From: a virus
Taxonomy: Duplodnaviria > Caudoviricetes
Strand: one strand, 5' to 3'
DNA length: 64,000 bases
Virus record (IMG/VR): IMGVR_UViG_3300021256_000084
Location: 22,162-86,161 of that record
Shown here: positions 9,849 through 10,018 of the stretch, in pieces
Numbering within the stretch: the first letter of the stretch is position 1
Layout: each line of letters opens with the position of its first letter
Notes under the pieces: generated by a model
What the model was told of the DNA's origin: nothing
The model's database searches: none
The model's input: the letters and a program-made list of their open reading frames with translations, nothing else
Position numbers and translations under genes: made by a program

Positions 9849-9888
9849 AAAAAAAGCCGCTGTGCAAGTACGACAAACACACAGCGGC
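9849..9888 (-). terminator. intrinsic terminator
   Basis: 9-bp stem GCCGCTGTG/CACAGCGGC, 15-nt loop, 7 U on the - strand. Confidence 0.75.
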
Positions 9889-9954
9889 CACGACATTTCA
9901 GTTTAACTTTGTGTAAAAAACTGCACGAGCAAGCACAGTCGATACAACAATGTC
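9849..9954 (-). ncRNA. candidate trans-acting antisense sRNA (~105 nt)
   Basis: Intergenic; -7 element TACCTTTG at 9959-9966 (-); intrinsic terminator at 9849-9888; contains segments complementary to repeated gene leaders. Confidence 0.55.
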
Positions 9955-9958
9955 AGTG

Positions 9959-10018
9959 CAAAGGTAGCATTTTTAACCCAATAAATAGCTCAAAAGTGCA
10001 GAATTTTGGGTAATTTTG
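9959..10018. promoter_or_regulatory. divergent promoter pair (sRNA leftward, ARH rightward)
   Basis: TACCTTTG (-) at 9959-9966 and TAATTTTG (+) at 10011-10018. Confidence 0.6.

Follow-up and report, generated by a model that had tools for sequence, protein, structure and literature searches.

A candidate minus-strand RNA gene, derived from an early leader and predicted to be antisense to such leaders, in a temperate phage with Bacteroidota-type promoters

The CI RNA of satellite phage P4 pairs with the phage's own transcripts through short exposed segments, and in phage T4 a single regulator, RegA or RegB, acts on a short motif common to many early-gene start regions. The Bacteroidota, where translation is initiated without a Shine-Dalgarno sequence, possess trans-acting sRNAs, namely GibS and the FopS family of Bacteroides (RF04319), which resemble the locus considered here in promoter type, in the layout of stem-loop, single-stranded seed, and terminator, in pairing at translation starts (predicted for this locus), and in belonging to a phylum without Hfq-type sRNA biology. 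In phages P1 and P7 (immI), the c4 RNA exerts RNA-level immunity or early-gene control via short exposed segments complementary to target boxes (PMC12197685). Another type is represented by OOP of lambda and sar of P22, transcripts of ~70–100 nt that have their own promoter and an intrinsic terminator and are antisense within the early region of a temperate phage, as is the candidate described below (PMC12197685). Almost all known phage regulatory RNAs come from phages of enterobacteria and staphylococci, and the review describes no RNA of a Bacteroidota phage (PMC12197685).

The studied locus lies in an 86,161-bp phage contig (50% G+C), of which bases 22162–86161, a stretch of 64,000 nt, are referred to as the window, and positions are those of the window (negative ones lying upstream of it) unless stated otherwise. 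By analogy, its predicted minus-strand RNA would resemble c4 and CI in function and OOP and sar in gene layout, and it appears to be a member of neither family. As with c4 and CI, a phage sRNA is predicted to act in trans on the phage's own transcripts, with exposed segments facing repeated leader or ribosome-binding boxes: the linker and the terminator loop are unpaired (predicted probability 0.8–0.85) and complementary to the ACGACA and CAGTTTAAC boxes. However, c4 and CI are excised from a transcript that also contains their target boxes, on the same strand, whereas the RNA considered here is encoded on the opposite strand with its own promoter and terminator, has no match to the Rfam C4 model (window at gathering scores, locus up to E = 10), and belongs to a Bacteroidota-type host without Shine-Dalgarno-led initiation, its predicted targets being spread over four operons and further start regions. 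The targets of OOP and sar are the transcripts that overlap them (cII and ant, respectively), whereas here the best-matching true leaders are 3–27 kb away; what the RNA overlaps on the plus strand is the relic of a leader between genes, without a conserved gene start, although read-through mRNA would still be complementary to the RNA. Unlike GibS and FopS, which target host transporter mRNAs, the RNA is phage-encoded with phage leaders as predicted targets, and it matches neither RF04319 nor any other Rfam model of Bacteroides sRNAs. RegA and RegB are proteins, whereas the regulator here would be an RNA. The locus consists of the following features.

9959–9966, minus strand: Bacteroidota-type −7 promoter box, TACCTTTG followed by CA (the plus strand reads CAAAGGTA), found by sequence inspection
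9849–9953, minus strand: predicted non-coding RNA of ~105 nt, the 5' end placed 6 nt past the box and the 3' end in the U-tract
9909–9953, minus strand: 5' stem-loop domain (helices P2 and P3) from RNAalifold and pair counts, holding the anti-start-codon segment 9940–9953
9889–9908, minus strand: single-stranded linker that is the antisense of the ACGACA and CAGTTTAAC leader boxes, nearly invariant in nine variants
9856–9888, minus strand: terminator hairpin with perfect inverted arms (9856–9864 and 9880–9888) and a 15-nt loop at 9865–9879 (11–15 nt)
9849–9855, minus strand: U-tract of the intrinsic terminator (A7 on the plus strand, U7 on the minus strand)
10011–10018, plus strand: divergent promoter TAATTTTG of the ARH (ADP-ribosylglycohydrolase) gene, back-to-back with the RNA promoter and kept in all relatives

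A promoter-to-terminator non-coding unit on the minus strand at 9849–9966 had been proposed in the earlier note; its elements are all present and gain comparative backing from nine variants. The terminator is of the intrinsic kind, with a G+C-rich stem of ~11–12 bp, seven G-C pairs, and T7 directly after it on the minus strand, and its loop core UGUCGUAC, at 9869–9876, is antisense to GTACGACA. Our own scan of the whole 86,161-bp genome returned only eight sites with a hairpin followed by a T-run, the RNA locus being the best of them (11 perfect pairs, 7 of them G-C, T7); a standard terminator scan missed it because the loop is longer than 8 nt. The box TACCTTTG agrees with the Bacteroidota −7 consensus TAnnTTTG and with the phage's own pattern TAnCTTTGC. 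The −33 TTTG element, which is weakly conserved in Bacteroidota and would be expected ~19–21 bp upstream of the −7 box, was sought as well: the nearest minus-strand TTTG lies 24 nt upstream and is not kept in the relatives G001 or L079, an off-spacing that lowers the case for a promoter and would still be compatible with promoter function. The folding energy of the minus-strand RNA is −35.6 kcal/mol (z = −2.6). No Rfam model matched the window at gathering scores or the locus up to E = 10, and nhmmer detected no second copy of the RNA gene in the genome, which has one copy, as does each related genome. Two coding readings were rejected: a minus-strand ORF starting from 9896 reads across the terminator and meets a stop at codon 3 in G001, whereas the plus-strand 80-aa ORF at 9771–10013 and a 5-codon mini-ORF are disrupted by single-base indels between relatives.

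The sequence of the locus recalls the leaders of the early operons. Four plus-strand promoter cassettes (at window −6413, 1180, 6876, and 36511) share ~130 nt, including GGGTTAA, GCTTA repeats, TTAGGTTT, and TAACTTTGCC.

Window 1105–1245, plus strand: promoter cassette
Window 6801–6925, plus strand: promoter cassette
Window 36436–36575, plus strand: promoter cassette
Genome 15680–15810, plus strand: promoter cassette

Each cassette is arranged as an upstream region, TAACTTTGCC, and a short leader, the latter containing a ACGACAAAC box (missing from the cassette at 6876), a CAGTTTAAC box, and, immediately 5' of the ATG, ACGACA. The leader box AGTTTAAC(AA), which we take to resemble the core of E. 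coli boxA, has further occurrences upstream of a hairpin (7672) and of a gene (30411). The motifs are confined to one strand: ACGACAATG occurs 11 times on the plus strand vs. 0 times on the minus strand (~0.3 expected per strand), and AGTTTAAC 9 vs. 0 times. Likewise, 11 of the 81 plus-strand genes start right after ACGAC-N, and 17 have CGAC within 12 nt of the start, whereas neither was found for any of the 45 minus-strand genes. The ACGACA-ATG start context is confined to plus-strand early-block genes (e.g., at 1228, 6908, 7287, 7719, 36559, 37971, and 38628) and is also present in G001. In a host type lacking Shine-Dalgarno sites, we regard it as a start context specific to one class of genes.

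The RNA locus reads as a same-orientation paralogue of the cassette leader, with extra sequence that accounts for the arms of the hairpin and for another, small hairpin. The complementarity of the minus-strand RNA to the leaders is real and far above chance, and it is in excess because the locus is a leader paralogue. Thus, the proposal that the unit is antisense to the shared leaders is borne out, while the further suggestion that the phage had standardised its leaders for the sake of the RNA finds no sign in these data, the complementarity having apparently arisen by duplication of a leader.

For the comparative analysis, the locus was traced to at least eight related phages, where it occurs once per genome and always adjoins the ARH gene; its presence in relatives, on which the earlier note had made its reading depend, is thereby confirmed. 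One relative, G001, is a complete 86,989-bp phage recovered by a scan for the cassette-leader pattern; it is syntenic with the studied phage, with ~75% nucleotide identity over half of the genome. Further relatives were reached via homologues of the 112-aa protein (8941–9279), which yielded the RNA gene in seven contigs (L076, L079–L083, and L087); L048 and L086 are close variants, and the IMG/VR contig 3300021431_000114 has the locus in identical form. Altogether, nine distinct variants were compared (G001, L076, L079–L083, L086, and L087). All contigs that reach the ARH gene hold the RNA locus once, directly upstream of it. Metagenome and genome collections, when scanned with 18-mers, yielded mostly chance matches, the only real ones being L029 (identical with G001) and L048, whereas the small flanking proteins retrieved only the same phage from IMG/VR. 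A scan for the promoter-cassette pattern found five contigs, none with the RNA (0/5). The ARH protein was rejected as a guide to the locus: its IMG/VR relatives (L002–L011) have different upstream contexts and lack the RNA gene.

The U-tract and the −7 box delimit the conserved block. With G001, homology sets in at 9846, and the DNA further left is unrelated between relatives, in which the left flank of the RNA gene shows five different gene arrangements; in G001, L079, and L080, a stop codon abuts the A-run. The RNA body has a mean pairwise identity of 0.85, whereas the 44-nt spacer to the right of the −7 box is 60% identical, and ARH codon positions 1, 2, and 3 are 73, 81, and 56% identical, respectively. 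All six specified positions of TAnnTTTG are invariant in the nine variants, the single change (in L079, TATCTTTG) being at an "n" position, and at least five T residues adjoin the stem in 9/9 variants despite the unrelated DNA beyond. A 14-nt unpaired stretch and the terminator-loop core are kept in all nine sequences, the loop core being invariant and the stems variable. The plus-strand TAACTTTG box, in turn, is kept in 8/9 variants and broken in L076 by the loss of a T; behind the ATG at 9950, the mini-ORF comprises 5 codons in the majority of variants, with a frameshift in L081 and a length of 20 codons in G001. Single-base indels are scattered across the conserved block.

These observations bear on the simplest explanation of the leader similarity, namely that the locus is a functionless, decaying duplicate of a promoter and leader, left behind by insertion of the ARH cassette, and that the minus-strand box and terminator are coincidental. 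The clear paralogy to the cassette leader would fit such a remnant, as would the frequency of TAnnTTTG by chance (56 occurrences in the window vs. ~31 expected). However, an identity of 85% among relatives whose neutral sites are ~56–60% identical, together with a promoter box and a U-tract that stay invariant across five left-flank contexts, argues for constraint, and the compensatory stem changes described next are not expected of a dead copy, so that we consider this explanation extremely improbable. The version left open in the earlier note, a decayed plus-strand leader copy, is disfavoured by the broken TAACTTTG box in L076 and the varying frame and length of the mini-ORF.

RNAalifold assigned four helices to the minus-strand RNA, with 95.9% of cells paired across the nine sequences (the consensus structure being derived from the same alignment that was used to score pairing), whereas slid controls gave 25–57% pairing. 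Six pairs show double changes, three of them in the terminator stem, and none of 500 shuffles reached the observed values, a statistic that overstates the significance, the variants being few and related. Besides the compensatory double changes, the terminator stem contains several changes from G-U to Watson-Crick pairs. Partition-function folding of eight variants, with an assumed start at 9953 (6 nt after the box), yielded in all eight a ~45-nt 5' stem-loop, a linker of ~18 nt, and a terminator hairpin with a loop of 11–13 nt. The predicted probability of being unpaired is ~0.8 for the linker, 0.85 for the terminator loop, and 0.3 for the anti-AUG segment, and the exposed segments (linker and loop) are also the most invariant ones. 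The anti-AUG segment, where helix P2 shows two double changes, lies mostly inside the 5' stem, and the linker and loop are accordingly more obvious seeds. The seed role given to this 5' segment in the earlier note is not supported by the folding: the segment is predicted to be mostly paired in a conserved stem.

The same pairs bear on which strand is functional. When read on the plus strand, 80.2% of them are canonical, many being G-U or alternating between G-U and Watson-Crick on the minus strand. Helix P3 is 100% paired, with an alternation of G-U, U-A, and C-G that is canonical on the minus strand only and leaves a constant A-C mismatch on the plus strand. In the terminator stem of G001, one pair is changed from U-A to U-G, the plus-strand equivalent being a C-A mismatch. 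The existence of a minus-strand RNA gene is, on this comparative evidence, likely. A plus-strand function, by which a leader-like cis element in the polycistronic early mRNA would serve as a decoy or re-loading site before ARH, its three ACGACA-type boxes and AGTTTAAC box binding the factor of the leaders (a translational regulator or an antitermination factor), seems distinctly unlikely, even though the boxes have the same orientation as in true leaders, the plus strand is likewise more stably folded than shuffled sequences (z = −3.3), TAACTTTG is retained in 8/9 variants, and so is the start-like ACAACAATG. Set against these points are the 80% of canonical pairs vs. 96% on the minus strand, with the constant A-C mismatch in P3; the conserved A-run before the hairpin, which makes sense as a minus-strand U-tract but serves no purpose on the plus strand; the invariance of the minus-strand TAnnTTTG compared with the plus-strand box broken in L076; and the A/G differences from real leaders, which fall at G-U wobble sites of the minus strand.

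The predicted targets of the minus-strand RNA were considered at the level of segments, since full-length RNAduplex runs against start regions were uninformative (−30 to −48 kcal/mol for everything). The exact matches to plus-strand leaders quoted in the earlier note all exist: 13/13 at 35422, 12/12 at 36539, 11 nt at 1208, 30381, and 26206, and 10 nt at 38247 and 38625. The pairing of the 5' segment over 13 bp at 6904–6916 and over 12 bp at 1225–1236 was reproduced as well (−17.7 and −16.5 kcal/mol, respectively). The predicted targets include the following.

6879–6916, plus strand: leader and start codon of the early operon starting at 6914; 5' segment 13 bp at 6904–6916 (−17.7 kcal/mol), linker 9 bp
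1183–1236, plus strand: leader of the operon starting at 1234; linker −22.5 kcal/mol over ~19 bp with a small internal loop, 5' segment 12 bp at 1225–1236 (−16.5 kcal/mol)
36514–36567, plus strand: leader of the operon starting at 36565; 12/12 match of the middle segment, linker −21.2 kcal/mol
35422–35440, plus strand: start region of the gene at 35438–35764; 13/13 match of the terminator loop, −20.4 kcal/mol

The cassette leader of the gene at −6357 forms a linker duplex of −18.7 kcal/mol. In the case of the operon starting at 6914, the RNA is approximately a full antisense copy of the leader, interrupted by the P3 hairpin. The complement of the loop core, GTACGACA, precedes several start codons, including those at 35438 (13/13), 26221, 38634, and 8362. 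Compared with shuffled controls, two of the three segments are enriched: the 5' segment forms start-region duplexes of −12 kcal/mol or stronger with 10 plus-strand and 0 minus-strand genes (shuffled segments, 1.35 ± 1.7), and the middle segment reaches −10 kcal/mol or stronger in 5 cases vs. 0.19. No enrichment against start regions was seen for the terminator-loop segment taken as a whole (18 vs. 9.3 ± 6.5), so the expectation that the targets would outscore shuffled controls holds for the 5' and middle segments and fails for the loop. Likewise, the idea of many target genes stands for four cassette leaders and ~7–10 start regions, and does not extend to most of the 81 plus-strand genes.

The RNA and the leaders also appear to vary together. 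Among seven phages with 6914-type leaders, the mean cognate duplex is −20.0 kcal/mol vs. −17.8 kcal/mol for swapped pairs, and 0.4% of permutations are as good. Within the 12 nt beside the AUG, the RNA differs from its own leader at G-U wobble positions only in 6/7 phages; the remaining one, L082, has one mismatch with its own leader, at the distal edge of this AUG-proximal stretch. The co-variation anticipated in the earlier note is thus seen in the stronger cognate duplexes of the seven phages, but gene conversion between paralogues could produce the same pattern, and the data are only suggestive of selection for pairing. The core motifs are invariant among the variants and consequently offer no clean compensatory comparison.

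Anatomy, conservation, covariation, strand bias, and complementarity are observed, and from them we infer transcription, timing, and repression: on balance, we lean towards a minus-strand non-coding RNA gene, made from a copied leader that is transcribed in reverse, antisense in trans to the early leaders and ACGACA-ATG starts, and repressing by pairing. The leader of the early promoter cassettes would have been duplicated and the copy transcribed oppositely, from its own promoter to its own terminator; a copied leader transcribed in the opposite direction yields an RNA antisense in trans to the leaders and to the plus-strand ACGACA-ATG subset. The linker and the terminator loop would then base-pair with early mRNAs at their 5' ends and start regions, as would the 5' anti-AUG segment once opened. 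Such pairing may block initiation, with no Shine-Dalgarno sequence as a competitor, or destabilise the early mRNAs, and the early operons would be dampened during lysogeny, when carried by superinfecting relatives, or at a late stage of infection.

If true, several dispersed early operons are controlled by one small RNA via their shared leader, and the locus shows the birth of a regulator by inverted transcription of a duplicated leader. An RNA and its leader tag would serve in gut and rumen Bacteroidota as a repression module that is compact and portable, and the class-specific ACGACA-ATG context provides a testable clue to the recognition of initiation sites in this phylum. More tentatively, temperate Bacteroidota phages in general may make such "anti-leader" RNAs, in which a duplicated leader lies between an outward-facing promoter and a terminator and silences a class of early mRNAs, as RNA-level immunity or as an early-to-late switch; this generalisation is possible and short of probable. 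The studied locus would be a well-conserved example of it, with the evolutionary origin still visible.

The surroundings of the locus are those of a temperate phage, as judged from its gene content. A repressor-like protein with an S24 peptidase domain is encoded at 25050–25676 on the minus strand, and a 390-aa ORF adjoining it (23606–24778, minus strand) is taken as a putative integrase. Several divergent TAnnTTTG boxes are found at 25700–25800 beside the repressor-like gene, and the 25050–25800 region is probably the lysis-lysogeny switch. The promoter boxes of the phage are of the Bacteroidota TAnnTTTG type by their pattern. Megablast of the region against GenBank phages gave no match, and in the distant-mode search of GenBank phages the ARH gene alone was matched, in Porphyromonas and Bacteroides phages.

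The genome is organised in strand blocks. The RNA locus lies within the plus-strand early block (~−6400 to 11630), which converges on the minus-strand packaging and head block beginning at 11654. The ARH gene may be a moron-like unit, active in lysogens. At 11630–11654, 24 nt separate the convergent ARH operon (plus strand) and MuF-ART gene (minus strand), and neither strand carries a terminator there, so that their transcripts should overlap; minus-strand read-through from 11654 would be antisense through the ARH operon, up to the hairpin at 9888–9856. From 9888 to the end of the late MuF gene (11654), our own scan revealed no other minus-strand terminator, and therefore late read-through would also stop at the hairpin of the RNA gene, carrying the same antisense sequence.

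This arrangement allows a purely local role of the minus-strand RNA, as a cis-antisense to read-through from the early operon 6914–9764 into ARH or as a mere terminator against late-operon transcription, the leader similarity being a relic. The RNA gene is inside the plus-strand block and fully complementary to any read-through transcript, the scan just described leaves its hairpin as the sole minus-strand terminator in that interval, and the divergent RNA and ARH genes stay together irrespective of the changing left flank. Nevertheless, a bare terminator or insulator leaves the invariant 18-nt linker, the loop core, the 5' stem-loop, and the RNA's own promoter unexplained, and the matching of the RNA to the cognate leader of a distant operon would be unexpected, which makes a local role unlikely in our opinion.

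The neighbourhood raises one further explanation for a minus-strand RNA, namely that it works mainly through protein binding, three UGU(C/U)GU repeats (at the 5' end, in the linker, and in the terminator loop) titrating or recruiting a protein such as a ProQ-C-like one. The three copies are conserved, and a PF24203 gene is present at 8362–8718 and in matching position in relatives; on the other hand, descent from the leader accounts for the motif copies, and contiguous complementarity to leaders of up to 19 bp exceeds a short protein motif. We regard protein binding as the main mode of action as very unlikely, compared with the antisense pairing favoured above.

The PF24203 gene itself (Phage_ProQ_C_like, E 4e-10, plus strand) lies 1.1 kb upstream of the RNA gene, as it does in relatives, and the AGTACGACG in front of its start is among the predicted targets of the terminator loop of the RNA. 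The sole good plus-strand intrinsic terminator of the early block (5405–5434) faces a three-gene minus-strand island at 5421–6714, which has its own TATCTTTG promoter at 6714 and includes one gene with weak TPR matches. The slot at 9280–9845, between the gene for the 112-aa protein and the RNA gene, is variable (compared also in L076, L079–L083, L086, L087, and G001): it contains unrelated small genes, in some relatives a SAM-synthetase-N-like gene (PF00438) and an HNH gene, and is empty in others.
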